A stretch of DNA of 64,000 bases from positions 1-64,000 of the IMG/VR virus record IMGVR_UViG_3300029288_005816, one strand, 5' to 3'. The notes under the pieces are model-generated. The model made no database searches and was not told where the DNA came from. It saw nothing but the letters and a program-made list of their open reading frames with translations. Made by a program: the position numbers and the translations under genes. This document shows positions 1,885-43,196 of the stretch, piece by piece (position 1 is the stretch's first letter; every line of letters starts with the position of its first letter). The DNA is from a virus. Taxonomy: Duplodnaviria; Caudoviricetes.

Positions 1885-2349
1885 TTATAGAAGTGGTAAA
1901 TTTCCTGTAATTTTATCAATTTCTTCAGCCCAATATGGACCAATTGCTATGCAAGTATTAGTAGGAACTCCATTGAATTCTGTTAATCCAGCGTCAGTTA
2001 TCAAAACAGTCGGCATATTTTCACTTTTGGCTTTTTGATATATTTCCAGAAGTTCCTTTTCATCTTTGCAATAAACACATATCTTTGTAAAGCGTCCATT
2101 AATCCATTTATCCCAGGGAGAATTTTTTTTGTATGCAAAAAACAAAGTGCCATATCCACACTTTTTTAATATCCAAAACAGAAAGCGAATTATAGTGAAT
2201 ATAATTCCTTTTTGTTTTATTCGCATTGTATTAAGCACAACTCCCAAACTCCCATGCGAGCCTTGAGCTATAGCTTTTCCCTGCCTCATTTTTAAATCCT
2301 TGCGAACAACTAGAACTTGTTTGCAACTGTTATTTTCTTTATTACTCAT
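1885..2349 (-). CDS. pth2: peptidyl-tRNA hydrolase type 2
   Basis: KQVLVVRKDLKMRQGKAIAQGSH, ITDAGLTEF, TCIAIGP, IDKITGNLPLL. Confidence 0.92.
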   Translation of the reverse strand: MSNKENNSCKQVLVVRKDLKMRQGKAIAQGSHGSLGVVLNTMRIKQKGIIFTIIRFLFWILKKCGYGTLFFAYKKNSPWDKWINGRFTKICVYCKDEKELLEIYQKAKSENMPTVLITDAGLTEFNGVPTNTCIAIGPYWAEEIDKITGNLPLL

Positions 2350-6647: not shown

Positions 6648-7090
6648 TAGCTGTTTTCCCTTATATCTCTTTTTATGTCTTTCTCCTTTAGGGATAATCT
6701 TTTATCATATAACTTTTTCCCCCTTGCTAGAGCTATAACAACTTTCACAAGCCCCCTTTCATTAACAAAAAGCTTTATTGGAACAATTGTAAGTCCCTTT
6801 TCTGAGGTTTTTTCTTTAAGCCTTTTTATTTCTTTTTTTGTTAAAAGAAGTTTCCTTTCTCTTTTAGGTTCGTGCTGATTATAGCTTGTATTTTTATATT
6901 CAGAAATGTGTAAGTTCTTAAGGAAAATTTCATTGTCTTTTATATAACAAAAAGAATCTGTAAAACTAGCAGCTCCATTTCTTATTGATTTCACTTCTGA
7001 CCCAGAAAGAACAATTCCCGATATGAGCTCTTCTATAAAAGTAAATTCAAAATTGGCTTTTTTATTTTTTATACTAATATTATTTTTCAT
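6647..7090 (-). CDS. smpB: SsrA-binding protein
   Basis: NKKANFEF, GIVLSGSEVKSIR, HEPKRERKLLL, KGLTIVP, LARGKKLYDKR. Confidence 0.95.
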   Translation of the reverse strand: MKNNISIKNKKANFEFTFIEELISGIVLSGSEVKSIRNGAASFTDSFCYIKDNEIFLKNLHISEYKNTSYNQHEPKRERKLLLTKKEIKRLKEKTSEKGLTIVPIKLFVNERGLVKVVIALARGKKLYDKRLSLKEKDIKRDIRENS

Positions 7091-33227: not shown

Positions 33228-34115
33228 TTATTTATAAAGATTGTTTTTTAAAATATAATCTATTACTTTTTCGTCTAAAATCTCTTTTAATTTATCTTTA
33301 GATGGATTTTTCTCTTTTAAGATATTTCTTGCCATTGTAGAAGAGACAGCAGGTATGTGAAATTTTTCCTCATCATGAATATAAATATGCGGTGATTGTA
33401 AATACCATTTCACACACTCATCTCTTTTGACGCCATTTCTTGGCACTACTATAAAAGGAACATCCATTTTTAGTAACTCTTCAAAATTGTACCAATCTTT
33501 TATTGTATTGGCTCTATCGATACCCATTACAAAAGAAAATCTATAATTTTCATACTCTTTATCATGAATCAATTTATTGAGCATGTGATAGGTTTCACCG
33601 TGCAATTGATGTTTTATTTCATAATCGCAGACTTTTATTCTGCCATCATTACTTGCAGCTATTTTTAGCATTTTAATTCTATGTTCTGAAGAGAGCATTT
33701 GCTTTCCATCCATATGTTGAAAAGCTGGCATCATCCAGACTTCATCAGCCCATTTACTTGCTTTTAAAACAAGATTCGCAATCCCTATATGTGCTTTAGT
33801 ACAGCAATCAAAAGCACCCCCCAAGATTGCCACTTGAGTCTTTCTTCCTCTACCTTTATATTGAAGCATTCTTCTTCTAATCTTTGCTTCATTACTTTTG
33901 ACAAGTTCAGAAATATCCCATCCACTTTCATTGCAAAGCTGAATAAGACTTGCGAGTAAATCACCTGCTTCTTCTTTTAAATTTGTTAAATCTGTATAAT
34001 TACAAAGTTCTCTACATTCTCCTGAAATATCTTCCAATCTTTTAGTAAGTGAAGTATGTACAAAAGCTTCTAAAAATACTTTATTTACAATCTCTTGTAA
34101 TTCTTTGTGCTCCAT
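33228..34115 (-). CDS. nadD: MazG-like pyrophosphohydrolase fused to nicotinate-nucleotide adenylyltransferase
   Basis: N-terminal E..EL..LKEEAGDLL; GGAFDCCTKAH, HRIKML, MGIDRA..WY..EELL, SSTMARN. Confidence 0.8.
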   Translation of the reverse strand: MEHKELQEIVNKVFLEAFVHTSLTKRLEDISGECRELCNYTDLTNLKEEAGDLLASLIQLCNESGWDISELVKSNEAKIRRRMLQYKGRGRKTQVAILGGAFDCCTKAHIGIANLVLKASKWADEVWMMPAFQHMDGKQMLSSEHRIKMLKIAASNDGRIKVCDYEIKHQLHGETYHMLNKLIHDKEYENYRFSFVMGIDRANTIKDWYNFEELLKMDVPFIVVPRNGVKRDECVKWYLQSPHIYIHDEEKFHIPAVSSTMARNILKEKNPSKDKLKEILDEKVIDYILKNNLYK

Positions 34116-35444: not shown

Positions 35445-36335
35445 TTATTTAATATAAGATTGAACTAAGTTATAGTTTCTTTTTTTACTTAAAATTTTTA
35501 AAGCATCTTTTCTTATTTGTCTTATTCTTTCTTTTGTTAAATCAAGTATCTCTCCTATTTCATCAAGACTCTTTGGCTCTTGGCCATTTAATCCATAGTA
35601 AAGTTCAATAACTAATCTATGATTTTTTGGCATATTATTTAATATATTATTGATTACTAATTTTAAATCTTCATCTTCTAATTTTTCATCAGTTTTTTTA
35701 AAGGTATAATCAGGAATTAAATTTTCAAGAGTAAAACTCTCAAATTTTGAGTTATTATTTGATACTTCAACGTTTAAAGATTGAAATCCTTTGTCAATCA
35801 AAAATATATTCTCAAAATCTTCGGGACTAATATCAAAATCGAGTATTTCAATAGTTTCATCTGTTGTCGGTTTTCTTTGATGAATTTGTTCAAATTTATC
35901 TTGAACTTTTTTTATTTTATTTAATTGCCCTATCTTATTAAGAGGAAGTCGTATACCTTTTAAGTTTTCATTTAGATAACACATTATAGATTGTCTTATC
36001 CACCACACAGCATAAGATATAAATTTACATCCTCTTGTAGAATCATATCTTCTAGCCGCTTTTATGAGCCCAATATTTCCTTCACTCACTAAATCCTCCA
36101 ATGAACATCCTTCGTTCTGATATTGTTTTGCCACGCTAATGACAAACCTCAAATTTCTTTCTATTAATTCAGTTTCTGCTTCTTTATCTCCATTTTTTAT
36201 TTTTAAAGCTAATTCTACTTCTTCATCTGGAGTTAAATTTGTGTTTTTTCCTAACTTTGACACCTCTTGTAGGTAACGATTAAATGATGCTGTTTCTCGT
36301 TTTGTAATTTGATTTGCTATTTTTAGTTGTTTCAT
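35445..36335 (-). CDS. RNA polymerase sigma-70 factor (RpoD/SigA-like, Bacteroidota style)
   Basis: SFNRYLQEV, NLRFVISVAKQYQ, DLVSEGNIGLIKAA..FISYAVWWIRQSI, SLDEIG..LTKERIRQI. Confidence 0.93.
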   Translation of the reverse strand: MKQLKIANQITKRETASFNRYLQEVSKLGKNTNLTPDEEVELALKIKNGDKEAETELIERNLRFVISVAKQYQNEGCSLEDLVSEGNIGLIKAARRYDSTRGCKFISYAVWWIRQSIMCYLNENLKGIRLPLNKIGQLNKIKKVQDKFEQIHQRKPTTDETIEILDFDISPEDFENIFLIDKGFQSLNVEVSNNNSKFESFTLENLIPDYTFKKTDEKLEDEDLKLVINNILNNMPKNHRLVIELYYGLNGQEPKSLDEIGEILDLTKERIRQIRKDALKILSKKRNYNLVQSYIK

Positions 36336-36361: not shown

Positions 36362-36385
36362 ATACGATAAAAACAAAAAAAAGTT
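36362..36385 (-). promoter_or_regulatory. ECF-like promoter AAC-N16-CGTAT upstream of sigma gene
   Basis: TGAAAC...TCGTATC. Confidence 0.7.
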
Positions 36386-36387
36386 TC

Positions 36388-36420
36388 AAAAAAAAACCTT
36401 CAAACAACAGTTTGAAGGTT
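36388..36420 (-). terminator. terminator of tmRNA gene
   Basis: AACCTTCAAAC-TGTT-GTTTGAAGGTT followed by T-run on minus strand. Confidence 0.85.
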
Positions 36421-36660
36421 ACTTACCTGCTTACGCTACAAGAACGCTTACAGGCGCTTGGCTGTAACTCATTTGAGCTAGAGCTGCTGCTTTTTTTATA
36501 AAATTTTCGCCGTTTAAAGCTATATTAATATTCTTTTCTTATTTGCAATGTTTTATTCTAATGCAGCACGCCCCCATATATACTTGTGAATCTGAGTGGA
36601 AGCGCCATCTTCGACGATGGGTCATAAAATATCTCAATAAAAATACAAACGAATATTAAT
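36421..36660 (-). ncRNA. ssrA: circularly permuted (two-piece) tmRNA
   Basis: Acceptor piece first (T-arm CCATC-GTCGAA-GATGG, 3' strand CGCTTCC-A at 36604-36597), 21-nt spacer, then coding piece starting GGGGGCG (36575); G3:U70 and A73; three P2 helices; tag ORF 36511-36431. Confidence 0.85.
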
Positions 36661-36666
36661 TTCTTG

Positions 36667-36697
36667 TAAATATATGAAAAAAAAATGAAATATCAAA
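36667..36697 (-). promoter_or_regulatory. near-consensus Bacteroidota promoter for tmRNA
   Basis: TTTG-N19-TATATTTA ending just before the predicted 5' end. Confidence 0.55.
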
Positions 36698-36814: not shown

Positions 36815-37639
36815 ATGAAAGTAATAAAAATTAAGAAAAGCGGAAAAATTTTTTTAGAAGAGGCAATAGGAGAAGAAGTTAAGACTACAAGGATAAAGAG
36901 TTTAAGTAATTTCTTGGCTTGTGAAGTTGAGTTAGAAGAAGGTCTCACCTTCGGTACATTATTTAAATTAATTCTTAAAGAAAAAGACATTTTTGATATT
37001 ATTTTCCATCAAGAATTAAATGACAAAGAACTTAAAGACTTTGAAAAAAAATTGAATGAGGTACCAGTTGTTTATGAAGAAGATTTTAAATTAAATTATT
37101 TAGAAGTTTCAAAAATATTTGAACTCTTTACTTTTGACAAAGGCAATACAATTGATTTATTTTCAGTATTTGTAGGAATAGGAAAAACAAATGATGGATT
37201 TGATGTTCTTATTCCATTAAGTTTTTTCTCTGTAAGTGAATTAAAAGATGTAGAAATTATACAAAATAAATCGGTAGAAGTTTGTAAAGATGTAAAGGTG
37301 GGGGATGAAGATTATCCAGAAGAAAACGATGACGATGATGATGGAGACGACGAGCCTGATGATGATAATTTAATTCCATATTTTGAGGCTTCTACTAAAA
37401 TAAACCTGTATGAAATTTTACAATGTATAATATGTGAAATAGCTTATTACAGAGATGACAATGATAGAATTTCAGTAAGAAGGAACCAAAATAGTGAACA
37501 CATTAATAAAAATAAAATAGCAATTTTACAAACCCAGCTTAAAGACCATATAGAAAACGAGGCATTTGAAAAGGCTGCAATAGTAAAAAGAGAGTTAGAT
37601 AGATTAAATACCGCAATTACTAATATAAACAAAAATTAA
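36815..37639 (+). CDS. hypothetical protein with acidic insert and C-terminal UVR motif
   Basis: EENDDDDDGDDEPDDDN; LQTQLKDHIENEAFEKAAIVKRELD. Confidence 0.75.
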   Translation: MKVIKIKKSGKIFLEEAIGEEVKTTRIKSLSNFLACEVELEEGLTFGTLFKLILKEKDIFDIIFHQELNDKELKDFEKKLNEVPVVYEEDFKLNYLEVSKIFELFTFDKGNTIDLFSVFVGIGKTNDGFDVLIPLSFFSVSELKDVEIIQNKSVEVCKDVKVGDEDYPEENDDDDDGDDEPDDDNLIPYFEASTKINLYEILQCIICEIAYYRDDNDRISVRRNQNSEHINKNKIAILQTQLKDHIENEAFEKAAIVKRELDRLNTAITNINKN

Positions 37640-39990: not shown

Positions 39991-40476
39991 TTAAACAAAC
40001 AATTTGTTTTCTTTAAACATCTCTGGTTTAGCTAAATATTCGCTTGCAGACCCAGATTTAATTTTTTCCATTGCCCTAATCATTGAAGATGATATATGCT
40101 CATATTTTCTATCACAAGGAATAAATATCATTTTAATATTTGGATTTTGGTCTTCAAGTACACGTAGTGTGTTGATTTCATAATCAAGGTCAGCTCCGTT
40201 TCTAAGTCCACGCACTATTGTAACATCATACCCTTCTTCTTCTTTTTTATGAATATAATCTACAAGGAATCCATCAAATCCTTCAACATTTTTCCCAATA
40301 AGATTCCTTTTTAAAGTTTCAATTACATTAACTCCACTTTTTTTATCTGGATTATTCCCAACTGCAACAACAACTTCATCAAATATTTTTTCTGCTTTTA
40401 ATAAAATATCTAAATGACCTATTGAAAATGGATTAAAACTTCCTGGGTAAATAGCTAATTTCTTCATTTCTTTCAT
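39991..40476 (-). CDS. coaD: pantetheine-phosphate adenylyltransferase
   Basis: AIYPGSFNPFSIGH, IVRGLRNGADLDYE, HISSSMIR. Confidence 0.9.
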   Translation of the reverse strand: MKEMKKLAIYPGSFNPFSIGHLDILLKAEKIFDEVVVAVGNNPDKKSGVNVIETLKRNLIGKNVEGFDGFLVDYIHKKEEEGYDVTIVRGLRNGADLDYEINTLRVLEDQNPNIKMIFIPCDRKYEHISSSMIRAMEKIKSGSASEYLAKPEMFKENKLFV

Positions 40477-40555: not shown

Positions 40556-41440
40556 ATGAAAAAAGAAAGTGAAATTATAAAATTTGCAGAAAAATACGCA
40601 TATATTTTTAATCCTTATAAAAATAAAACTGAAAAAATAACATTATTTGATTATCAAAAAAAGATATTGAATAATTTTGAAAAAAATAAATTTACAATTA
40701 TTAAACAAAGTAGACAAGTTGGAATAGATACAGTAGTTGCAATATATGCTGCATATCTTCTTATAAAAAATAATGAAAAAACAATTCTTGCTATATATGA
40801 TTCTATTGATAGTGCAAAAAATTTTTTGCAAACAGTTAGAAATATTATTATGCATGTAGAAGAATCTTGTGAAAATAAAAAAAATAGATTATTTTTCATA
40901 AATAACAAAAGAGAAATTCAACTTAAAAATAAAAGTAGATTAATAGTCATGGGAGATACTCCAAATGGAGGAAAAAGTTACAGGATTGATTTATTATTTA
41001 TGAATAATTTTGAGTATATTTCACATAGCAAAGATATTTGGGCAGCCGCTGGATGGACTTTATCTGTAAACAATGGAAAATCCATATTTGCATCTACTCC
41101 TAAATATAAAAAAGGCTTTTTCCATGAGTTATGGAACAATGCAATAAAGAAAAAAAATGATTTTAAACCAGTAAATATTAATTGGAAACAAAATCCATAT
41201 TTTGATAATGTATGGTATGAAAATATGTGCAAAACACTTAATTATGATAAAGATTCAATAGCAACAGAATTGGATGGAAAATTCATAAGTAAAAAAGAAA
41301 ACAGAAAAAAAACCACAATAACCATGCGAATAGAAATAGATAAAAAAGATAAAATATTAAATAGGATAAAGCAAAAAAATATGAGCTCTATAACAGATTA
41401 TATTATAGAACTCATAAATAATGATTTAAAATGTTATTAA
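40556..41440 (+). CDS. terminase large-subunit ATPase-like domain (degenerate) fused to C-terminal RHH
   Basis: LFDYQ, KQSRQVG, ASTP..GFFHELW, WKQNP; Walker B reads LFMNN; no nuclease domain; C-terminal TITMRIE..SITDYIIELI. Confidence 0.7.
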   Translation: MKKESEIIKFAEKYAYIFNPYKNKTEKITLFDYQKKILNNFEKNKFTIIKQSRQVGIDTVVAIYAAYLLIKNNEKTILAIYDSIDSAKNFLQTVRNIIMHVEESCENKKNRLFFINNKREIQLKNKSRLIVMGDTPNGGKSYRIDLLFMNNFEYISHSKDIWAAAGWTLSVNNGKSIFASTPKYKKGFFHELWNNAIKKKNDFKPVNINWKQNPYFDNVWYENMCKTLNYDKDSIATELDGKFISKKENRKKTTITMRIEIDKKDKILNRIKQKNMSSITDYIIELINNDLKCY

Positions 41441-42141
41441 ATTGGTTTTTTCTTTTCTAAAATATTATCAATCAAGCCATAGTCTTTTGCTTCACTTGAA
41501 GTCATCCAGTGGTCACGGTCTGAATCTTTTGCAATAGTTTTAAATGGCTTCCCAGAATGAATAGAAATAATCTCATAAAGCTCCTTTTTGGTCTTTTTTA
41601 TTTCTTCTGCTGCAATATCTATATCAGAAGATTGTCCACATGCTCCACCTGATGGCTGGTGTATCATAGTTCTTGCATGTTTTAATGCGCTTCTTTTGCC
41701 TCTTGTACCAGCGCATAACAAAACTGCCGCCATAGATGCAGCCATTCCTGTATTAACAGTAACAATGTCTGGAATAATATATTGCATTAAATCATAAATG
41801 CCCATTCCTGAATATACTGAGCCTCCTCCACTATTTATATAAATAGATATATCACTCTTTGGGTCAATAGACTCAAGAAATAGTAATTGGGCATTTACCA
41901 CGTTTGCCACAATATCATCAATAGGCAAACCAAGAAATATAACTCTATCTACCATTAATCTATCAAAAACAGAAATTGATATAGCATTCATTCTGCGTTC
42001 CTCTATTACATTCGGAGTCATTGCAACTGGACCAGCTGAATTACAACCAACAATATTATTCATTGCAGTATTGTATCTATGAAGATTTAAACTACTAATT
42101 CCCTTATGCTTTATAGCATATTTTTCAAATTCTTTTTTCAT
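41437..42141 (-). CDS. clpP: ATP-dependent Clp protease proteolytic subunit
   Basis: SVFDRLMVDRVIFL, YINSGGGSVYSG, AASMAA (Ser), MIHQP (His), DRDHWM. Confidence 0.95.
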   Translation of the reverse strand: MKKEFEKYAIKHKGISSLNLHRYNTAMNNIVGCNSAGPVAMTPNVIEERRMNAISISVFDRLMVDRVIFLGLPIDDIVANVVNAQLLFLESIDPKSDISIYINSGGGSVYSGMGIYDLMQYIIPDIVTVNTGMAASMAAVLLCAGTRGKRSALKHARTMIHQPSGGACGQSSDIDIAAEEIKKTKKELYEIISIHSGKPFKTIAKDSDRDHWMTSSEAKDYGLIDNILEKKKPI

Positions 42142-42185: not shown

Positions 42186-43196
42186 TTATAATTCCATTTC
42201 TTCATGAATTATCAACTCCTTGCCTATAATATTTAGATTTTTAGTTTTTAATGAAACTTTTTCAAAATCTTCAGCAAATTCATCTTTTAATCGCTTTGCT
42301 TGAATTCTTAATTTTTCTTTAGTCTCGTGCTTTTTAACTAAAGACAATTTTCTATCCAAGTCCAAATCAATTGCTTTTTTTATGGATTCAAGTTTTATTT
42401 TTGAATTCTTCATTTCTTTAAATATACCTTTAATTTCCTTTTGGCTATTGTGATAAAGGAATATGTTTGGAAAAGTATTTGTCAATTCTTCTAATTTTTG
42501 ATATTCGCAATGTGGATAAAAAGGTGACAAATCCTTATATGTAGATTCATGAAAAATAAAAACATTTTCTGGCACTTTAATTAATGACTCATATAATTTT
42601 AAATCTGTCTTGCTAATTATTTCTGTTATTGGGACATTAACATCCCCACTATAAATCAGGAATAAATCTTCTTTATTTTTTCTAAAATTAAACACAAAAC
42701 CTGCAGATGGAAAATCTTTATAATGATAATTTGTAGTATCAATTTTATGAATAATCATATTCAAATTTTTATATAAAACATTAGGATTCGAGTTTATTAT
42801 ATAACTATCTTCCATATGTCCGCAAACATCTTTCAAATATGTTTCAATTTTTGATTTTAAAGAAGGAATACATTCAATTTTAGCAATTTGGTTTTTCTTA
42901 TCGAAATATTTATGATATACAAGCGTAGAAAGGCTTCCAATGTGGTCTTCATGACAATGAGTAATAAAAATATAATCAATGCTATCAATTAAATTTCTTG
43001 CTTTTAATTCAGAATATGTGGTAGAACCACAATCAATCAGAATGGTACCCGCAGCAGTTTTAATAATAGCACTTGAGTTTTTTTCAAGCGCATCAAAAGC
43101 TCCGCCTGTTCCCAAAAAGAGAATTTCAACTATTGGTGGTTTACCACTATTTTTTAGTAAAGCATTAATTTTAGATTTTAATATAAATTTGGCCAT
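42186..43196 (-). CDS. MBL-fold metallohydrolase (RNase Z-like)
   Basis: FLGTGGAF, LIDCG, THCHEDH, YSGD, HESTY. Confidence 0.85.
   Translation of the reverse strand: MAKFILKSKINALLKNSGKPPIVEILFLGTGGAFDALEKNSSAIIKTAAGTILIDCGSTTYSELKARNLIDSIDYIFITHCHEDHIGSLSTLVYHKYFDKKNQIAKIECIPSLKSKIETYLKDVCGHMEDSYIINSNPNVLYKNLNMIIHKIDTTNYHYKDFPSAGFVFNFRKNKEDLFLIYSGDVNVPITEIISKTDLKLYESLIKVPENVFIFHESTYKDLSPFYPHCEYQKLEELTNTFPNIFLYHNSQKEIKGIFKEMKNSKIKLESIKKAIDLDLDRKLSLVKKHETKEKLRIQAKRLKDEFAEDFEKVSLKTKNLNIIGKELIIHEEMEL

Follow-up and report, generated by a model that had tools for sequence, protein, structure and literature searches.

A putative circularly permuted, pseudoknot-free tmRNA gene in a large phage that probably infects Bacteroidota

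Between a divergent 274-residue open reading frame (ORF; 36815-37639, plus strand) and an RpoD-like sigma-factor gene (35445-36335, minus strand), the DNA analyzed here contains an interval, at about 36665-36386 on the minus strand, in which an earlier reading made from the sequence alone (the sequence-only reading) had placed a circularly permuted, minimized two-piece gene for transfer-messenger RNA (tmRNA; gene ssrA). The stretch of 64,000 nucleotides, which we refer to as the window, belongs to a 90.7-kb IMG/VR virus record with a G+C content of about 27%. The task of tmRNA is to free ribosomes that have stalled. Three bacterial lineages have been described as having given rise to a two-piece form of it, and mitochondria have a reduced one. 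The locus raises the question of whether it encodes such an RNA and, if so, where the gene came from. From the window alone the case for a tmRNA was weak and only borderline above chance; the tmRNA reading was settled by comparison with 13 homologous loci. We consider it very likely that the locus is a functional circularly permuted ssrA of a large, probably Bacteroidota-infecting phage; with less certainty, it most likely derives from a Bacteroidota-type one-piece tmRNA by a separate permutation.

Read along the minus strand, the locus opens with a promoter-like site (TTGATA-16 nt-TATATT, 36669-36696; 10/12 matches), both hexamers of which are kept in the aligned homologs, and transcription from this putative promoter is predicted to start a few bases ahead of helix P2c. 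There follow the P2 3' strands, the T arm, the acceptor 3' strand with the discriminator base A73, a 21-nt spacer, the acceptor 5' strand, the P2 5' strands, a 12-nt linker, a 26-codon tag frame, helix 5 with the stop codon, and a terminator. The features listed in the sequence-only reading were all found on the minus strand where it had placed them, including the 21-nt intervening segment (36576-36596). The acceptor 3' half thus lies upstream of the 5' half, as in a permuted gene, and the spacer between them is unconserved in sequence and ranges from about 16 to about 75 nt in the family; it is presumably excised.

Homologs were collected by retrieving the surroundings of relatives of the sigma factor, scanning collections with a tag-region pattern and then searching with an nhmmer profile. 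The sigma-factor relatives (51-68% identity) were carried by long contigs from metagenomes, which in some cases measure 229-540 kb, and nhmmer located the element in L037, L039, L040, L041, L042, L084, L128, L132, L133, L138, L140, L141 and L142. The L042 sequence was identical in L043 and L131, and L133 was cut at a contig end; the family as analyzed consists of 14 distinct sequences, the window copy and 13 further copies. In all copies the element stands upstream of a phage RpoD-like sigma gene. On the 456-kb contig L037, an IS605-family tnpB (OrfB_IS605, with a Cas12f-like TNB domain; L037:1168-2328) has inserted between the tmRNA and the sigma gene and left the RNA intact, which argues that the RNA is a separate unit instead of the leader of that gene. 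The shorter contig L038 stops before reaching the RNA.

Covariation of the helices among homologs, on which the sequence-only reading had made its proposal depend, was found. Five sequences and no more than the four securely known helices went into a covariance model (R1), to which all 14 sequences were aligned. Standard pairs filled 98.1% of the cells, compared to 79% after shuffling and 45-53% when the partners were slid by 1-3 columns; 17 of the 28 pairs had changed on both sides, and not one of 500 shuffles reached any of the five observed measures. RNAalifold, run on the same alignment, recovered the helices of the model and added helix P2b and an extension of helix P2a, giving 38 pairs (24 compensatory), with 92% pairing in the two added elements.

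The tRNA-like domain includes a T arm (36605-36620) with the predicted 5-bp stem CCATC/GATGG, in which all five pairs are compensatory, and the 6-nt loop GTCGAA, one base shorter than usual. In the T stem and in P2a the sequence is nearly all replaced between members and the pairing is kept. The T arm is preceded by a GAC junction (36621-36623), aligned to the Rfam consensus; standard tmRNAs, those of Bacteroidota included, have GGAC. The acceptor 3' strand with A73 (36597-36604) pairs in the covariance-model alignment with the 5' strand GGGGGCG (36569-36575), forming the proposed 7-bp stem, which includes G3:U70 and also G4:U69. This stem is paired in 100% of cells; the columns for G1:C72, G2:C71 and G3:U70 are invariant (14/14), as are A73 and the C that follows it. 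G3:U70 and A73 are the marks of alanine identity. C74 is encoded in the window gene, and C75 and A76 are not. Known two-piece tmRNAs lead us to expect an RNase P site at the 5' side of the GGGGGCG strand. A 12-nt single strand resembling a D loop (36557-36568), with a near-invariant TAGA, aligns to the Rfam tmRNA_permuted consensus.

The two pieces are predicted to be joined by a long P2, which stands where a tRNA has its anticodon arm and for which the sequence-only reading had drawn three helices. Its perfect 10-bp helix, now P2c (36651-36660 with 36524-36533), was retained, with 96.8% of cells paired and four of 10 pairs changed on both sides. The two inner helices were replaced by P2a and P2b. 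P2a and its extension (36624-36634) pair with 36545-36556 across one bulge; P2a proper (36629-36624 with 36556-36551) is 97% paired and compensatory at five of six pairs, and the extension of five pairs, added by RNAalifold, has two mismatched pairs in the window copy. P2b, predicted independently by RNAalifold as a U-rich/purine-rich helix of 5-6 bp, probably pairs the U-rich strand 36638-36643 with 36536-36541. The coding-piece strands (36524-36556) are placed by pair counts and by RNAalifold, and the redrawn P2 comprises 11 pairs with a bulge in P2a, six in P2b and 10 in P2c, a total of about 27 bp. Of the helices proposed earlier, TTTTATT/AATAAAA was dropped, only 59% of its cells being paired. 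The pairing of GTTTGTA with TGCAAAT (36541-36547), which recalls the GCAUGU/GCAUGU helix of standard tmRNA, was weakly rejected: it was 81% paired, nearly all of it G-U, with one compensatory pair, and it is incompatible with P2b in a nested structure. Since both inner helices fared poorly and the second clashed with P2b, GTTTGTA (36644-36650) is drawn as a conserved 7-nt bulge; its alignment columns are invariant and it lies inside the near-invariant block TTCGTTTG.

Downstream of P2, the 12-nt linker (36512-36523) ends in an invariant TAAAC, directly followed in all 14 copies by an open frame of 23-26 codons. In the window this tag frame (36431-36511) starts at a GGC resume codon (36511-36509), runs for 26 codons encoding GENFIKKAAALAQMSYSQAPVSVLVA and ends at a TAA stop (36433-36431); the first codon is GGC throughout the family, with GAC in L141. 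The frame has no start codon ahead of it and an in-frame TAA lies upstream. Frame lengths differ only by multiples of three, as expected of in-frame insertions and deletions. Mean pairwise differences by codon position were 0.26, 0.21 and 0.43, and median synonymous divergence (0.49) exceeded non-synonymous divergence (0.25), whereas the dozen bases ahead of GGC are conserved without codon periodicity. The in-frame indels, the third-position excess and the upstream context indicate that a peptide is probably made and under selection, and that it would be read from an internal resume point. Its core is approximately G-[EKND]-N-F-[IMLV]-K-x-A-x-A-L-A-x-[ML]-S-Y-S-[QN]-A-P. The stop codon is enclosed by a hairpin resembling helix 5 (36425-36455), with the same fold in all members and different stem sequences (CCTGC/GCAGG, CCTAA/TTAGG, CAGTTT/AAACTG). 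The terminator that had been predicted about 10 nt past the stop is present as an 11-bp stem (36420-36395) with a T run (36386-36420 overall); a counterpart lies within a few bases of the stop-codon hairpin in all members, and the coding piece would have its 3' end at this terminator.

The sequence-only reading had noted that only 12 nt separate P2 from the resume codon, leaving no room for pseudoknot 1. The gap measures 11-15 nt throughout the family and the terminator closes the RNA, so there is no space for pseudoknot 1 or for pseudoknots 2-4; the suggestion that most pseudoknots had been lost was, if anything, understated, there being room for none. Pseudoknot 1, which is near-universal in tmRNA and not strictly defining, was not found. 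We also considered a pseudoknot between the GTTTG of the bulge and the TAAAC ahead of the resume codon and rejected it, as L128, L140 and L142 vary there without compensation.

SmpB is the obligate protein partner of tmRNA. The phage carries its own smpB (6656-7072, minus strand), which scored 182 bits and passed the cut-offs of two equivalog models, TIGR00086 and NF003843. The same combination was found in phage G006 (229 kb, 82% complete), which has the permuted RNA, lacks a standard tmRNA and encodes smpB at a distance of about 33 kb. No standard tmRNA was found in the window's record either; matches to the tmRNA model RF00023 near 86.6 kb were 17-85 nt long and scored at most 25 bits. These form a cluster of short T-arm matches outside the window (G000:C1:86560-86850) that is probably a phage tRNA gene array. 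The phage SmpB, the covariation, the coding-type tag frame and the calls that ARAGORN made on three homologs bear out the proposal of a circularly permuted, minimized tmRNA.

A number of observations weigh against this conclusion. ARAGORN called nothing at the window locus, and the window copy is far under the gathering score of the tmRNA_permuted model RF04321 (19.8 versus 47 bits). The window T loop, with six nucleotides and a G at the T54 position, departs from the tRNA-like consensus. The alignment used for the pair counts was fitted to the model, which favors the structure, and with 14 sequences the basis for covariation statistics is small. Pseudoknot 1 is missing here although it is near-universal where a tag frame is kept, being present in nearly all such molecules in a review of 274 tmRNAs (PMC1168896). 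The gene does not encode the complete CCA end, and the 90.7-kb record yielded no CCA-adding enzyme. The tag ends vary (LVA, LAA, AAA, AKV, LTV, VTA, ATC), so not all tags resemble classical ClpXP degrons.

One rival explanation holds that the element is no tmRNA: it would instead form the leader of the downstream sigma gene or regulate that gene in cis, encode a small protein, or be a tRNA-like fold that arose by chance in AT-rich DNA. Rfam at its gathering score reported nothing for the window locus. Searched by E-value on 700 bases, the two best relevant matches were the mitochondrial tmRNA model RF02544, which gave the highest score of any Rfam model (25.1 bits, E 0.06), and RF04321 (E 0.07). 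With such borderline values, no ARAGORN call, and a position upstream of a sigma gene in every case, the window alone leaves this explanation some ground. The RF04321 alignment, however, spans the window copy from end to end with each part falling where the sequence-only reading had placed it, and the T arm and acceptor hairpin form in the minimum-free-energy fold (z = -3.1). The check by Rfam and ARAGORN that had been proposed gave no call on the window itself. Among the homologs, ARAGORN called L039, L084 and L142 permuted tmRNAs with tag frames beginning at the same GGC, and RF04321 spanned every homolog tested end to end, with 27.1-45.5 bits, all below the gathering score. The T loops of the three ARAGORN-positive loci are 7 nt long. 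Such loops, of the TTCGAAT kind, occur in nine homologs; GTCGAA is shared by the window, L041, L042 and L128, and L037 has the 6-nt loop TTCGTC. The 6-nt loop likely explains the ARAGORN miss in the window. The comparative data contradict a non-tmRNA identity of the element: the covariation fits tmRNA architecture, the frame lacks a start codon and has an in-frame TAA upstream, the element is set apart from the sigma gene by a terminator and by a separate AAC-N16-CGTAT promoter, and it is intact where the insertion sequence separates the two. We therefore find this explanation hardly credible. Only slightly more plausible, and still very improbable, is that the RNA is a decoy: its tRNA-like part would titrate host SmpB, alanyl-tRNA synthetase (AlaRS) or stalled ribosomes, thereby shutting down trans-translation in the host, and the tag would go unused. 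There is precedent in the mycobacteriophage DS6A, whose tmRNA has kept no more than the tRNA-like domain, and molecules of this kind inhibit tmRNA (PMC4131195, PMC11915505). A decoy would not call for a frame that is open in 14 of 14 copies, with in-frame indels, a third-position excess and a conserved peptide core, nor for a conserved resume context and a helix 5 around the stop codon, and this phage supplies an SmpB of its own.

The origin of the permuted gene is less certain, because the short tRNA-like domain holds little phylogenetic signal. The sequence-only reading had suggested an independent permutation in a Bacteroidota phage. The closest bacterial relatives of the phage SmpB are from Bacteroidota (52-58% identity), as are the named bacterial relatives of the sigma factor (45-49%). 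Four Bacteroidota genomes have one-piece tmRNAs of 365-401 nt with the resume codon GGC and the tags GENNYALAA, GNNNYALAA, GNTNFALAA and GERQYALAA, and the first codons of the window frame, GGC GAA AAT, are the same as those of the Flavobacteriales tmRNA L227. In contrast, 101 sampled Pseudomonadota yielded 32 permuted tmRNAs (50-162 bits on RF04321), and in the 15 of these read by ARAGORN all tags start with ANDN (14 of 15 are 10-13 residues long), unlike the family tags, which start with G followed by E, K, N or D. In the 2025 tmRNA database, 24,380 of 24,454 Bacteroidota tmRNAs are standard (supplementary table), and every permuted gene is assigned to the alpha, beta or cyano type (PMC11915505). 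The GGC (Gly) resume codon, the GEN start, the Bacteroidota-like SmpB and sigma factor and the sub-threshold scores on permuted models favor, without proving, a fourth, separate permutation of a Bacteroidota-type gene within the phage lineage, as had been suggested. We regard it as unlikely, though clearly less so than the explanations weighed above, that a real two-piece tmRNA was captured already permuted from a cyanobacterial, alpha or beta source and subsequently diverged, with loss of its pseudoknots and a switch to another resume codon. Phage two-piece tmRNAs from permuted host lineages are documented (PMC9004378). The lineage models gave their best matches in the family to L142 (a partial cyano_tmRNA, RF01851, match of 34 bits against a threshold of 70), which counts against a Bacteroidota origin, and to L140 (beta_tmRNA, RF01850, 29 against 84 bits). 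Both are far below threshold and cover mainly the common tRNA-like domain, and the alpha_tmRNA model (RF01849) had no match among the family members searched. The ANDN tags of alpha and beta types, the codons shared with L227 and the Bacteroidota-like proteins also speak against a captured gene. A further point against a Bacteroidota source is that the comparison covered only Bacteroidota one-piece and Pseudomonadota permuted tmRNAs. The N-I-V close to the start of cyanobacterial tags and the APV toward their end faintly resemble the NFI...QAPV of the window tag.

If the locus is a permuted ssrA as we propose, a single precursor of about 280 nt would be transcribed from the promoter at 36696-36669. 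By analogy with known two-piece tmRNAs, RNase P would cut 5' of G36575, and the spacer would be trimmed to A73-C74, a CCA-adding enzyme of the host completing the end. Processing would leave an acceptor piece of about 65-70 nt and a coding piece of about 190 nt, which the 7-bp acceptor stem and the roughly 27 bp of P2 would keep joined. The RNA would be charged by AlaRS through G3:U70 and enter stalled ribosomes with the phage SmpB, translation resuming at GGC and adding Ala and the 26-residue tag. The end of P2c, fixed at 11-15 nt from the resume codon, may stand in for pseudoknot 1. Since neither a CCA-adding enzyme nor a ClpX/ClpA-type unfoldase was found in the 90.7-kb record, CCA addition and Clp unfolding would be left to the host. 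Three members have spacers of 60-75 nt with a hairpin of their own (L042:2100-2170, L133:15-95 and L141:2180-2240); in L042 a T run behind the spacer hairpin suggests that the two pieces might be transcribed separately there. A bolder and quite tentative possibility is that a fourth, pseudoknot-free tmRNA lineage became permuted independently within large Bacteroidota phages, in which a plain helix end sets the resume codon and, together with the phage SmpB, a private 26-residue tag (core ALA-x-[ML]-SYS-[QN]-AP) is added that steers stalled products to a fate chosen by the phage, such as the ClpP encoded 5 kb away, and not to the host ssrA pathway; any connection of the tag with this ClpP is speculative.

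Among the closest known systems is the two-piece tmRNA of Alphaproteobacteria (for example Caulobacter ssrA; RF01849, merged in RF04321), with which the phage gene shares the gene order, G3:U70 and a spacer that is presumably excised to leave two base-paired pieces. The two differ in score on RF04321 (113-162 bits for alpha-type genes versus 20-45 for the phage family), in the resume codon (Ala versus Gly), in the tag (alpha-type tags start with ANDN and mostly have 10-13 residues) and in the position of the resume codon, 200-229 nt into the gene in Pseudomonadota permuted genes and 174-178 nt in the phage family. The alpha-type keeps pseudoknots 1 to 3, with pseudoknot 4 reduced to a helix (PMC1168896), whereas the phage gene fits none. 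The likeness to the Bacteroidota one-piece tmRNA (RF00023) lies in the Gly resume codon GGC, a tag starting G-E-N or G-N, the GAC before the T arm and a partner SmpB that is 52-58% identical to that of the phage. That tmRNA is, however, unpermuted, 365-401 nt long and has a 9-residue tag ending in ALAA, while the phage form is permuted, has a tag of 23-26 residues and ends at a terminator just past helix 5. The mitochondrial tmRNA of jakobids and oomycetes (RF02544) is, like the phage form, permuted, pseudoknot-free and minimal, but it seems to have no tag frame (PMC11915505), and the phage gene has a long conserved one.

Phage-borne permuted ssrA just 3' of a promoter, as here, has been reported in marine phages (the OM43 phage Melnitz and pelagiphages); those tmRNAs were detected by ARAGORN and cluster with alphaproteobacterial ssrA, and no phage smpB was reported there (PMC9004378). 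Huge phages carry many translation genes, including tmRNA and SmpB; their tmRNAs were annotated with ARAGORN, and the passages of that report dealing with tmRNA mention neither their form nor a permuted lineage (PMC7162821). Annotation with ARAGORN in that manner would miss the window copy. Two-piece tmRNA, its marine phage-borne alphaproteobacterial type (PMC9004378) and tmRNA with SmpB in huge phages (PMC7162821) are thus already known, and what is new is the lineage, the absence of pseudoknots beside a long selected tag, and a family that lies under the curated detection threshold. As the family falls below the Rfam threshold and is only sometimes caught by ARAGORN, such phage ssrA genes are under-annotated. 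If a further permuted lineage does exist in phages whose hosts likely have one-piece tmRNA, permutation recurs and is easy to reach, and a long selected tag frame without a pseudoknot provides a natural test of the need for pseudoknot 1.

The searches beyond the family were largely negative. An exact 24-nt search with the T arm and acceptor strand found no match in viral contigs, and a search for sigma-factor relatives in viral contigs found none. Blastn of the region against GenBank phages gave no match, and the best match to the sigma factor in GenBank phages was only 36% identical. Against five SmpB-bearing relatives, whose records are fragments 2-34% complete, blastn returned AT-rich noise only and R1 had no match; R1 also had no match in 151 sampled Bacteroidota genomes. 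The resume-region pattern matched 84 stretches in viral contigs (80 listed as loci), one of which, L084, was real, and the tag-based pattern returned 11 metagenome loci, five of them real and six chance matches within unrelated genes. In L139, whose sigma factor is 56% identical, a real ORF occupies the place where the RNA would be. A sigma factor 61% identical to that of the window (protein P0014) was deposited under a Candidatus Paceibacterota metagenome-assembled genome; its contig is probably a misbinned phage contig, and such contigs could account for some of the stray 'permuted' genes that the tmRNA database counts for non-proteobacterial phyla. A phage that is more distant, its SmpB being 43% identical, has a standard one-piece tmRNA (73 bits; L029:1502-1896, G005:C1:45145-45540), with the ARAGORN tag ETAFELATA and an acceptor stem identical to that of L133.

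Further genes that may act with the tmRNA were found in the window. A peptidyl-tRNA hydrolase of the archaeal/eukaryotic type, Pth2 (1888-2325, minus strand), scored 117 bits, and in L140 a PTH2 gene lies 2 kb from the tmRNA. ClpP (41437-42141, minus strand), 5 kb from the tmRNA gene, passes the cut-off of a ClpP subfamily model, and a ClpP gene is also near the tmRNA in L142. The set of SmpB, tmRNA, Pth2 and ClpP suggests phage control of ribosome rescue during infection. A protein with a metallo-beta-lactamase fold (42186-43196, minus strand) adjoins ClpP; its best NCBIfam models are those for RNase Z, but with 60 bits against a cut-off of 252 this identity was rejected.

The AAC-N16-CGTAT motif between the tmRNA terminator and the sigma gene (36362-36387, minus strand) is kept in all homologous loci, and in L040 to L043 it occurs a second time, ahead of the tmRNA promoter. 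Its core, TTTTTATCGTA, occurs 13 times in the window at no more than one mismatch, compared to 5.6 expected. Cofactor-metabolism genes lie on either side of the tmRNA region: a MazG domain fused to a nicotinate-nucleotide adenylyltransferase-like domain (33228-34115, minus strand) and the pantetheine-phosphate adenylyltransferase CoaD, which scored above its cut-off (39991-40476, minus strand).

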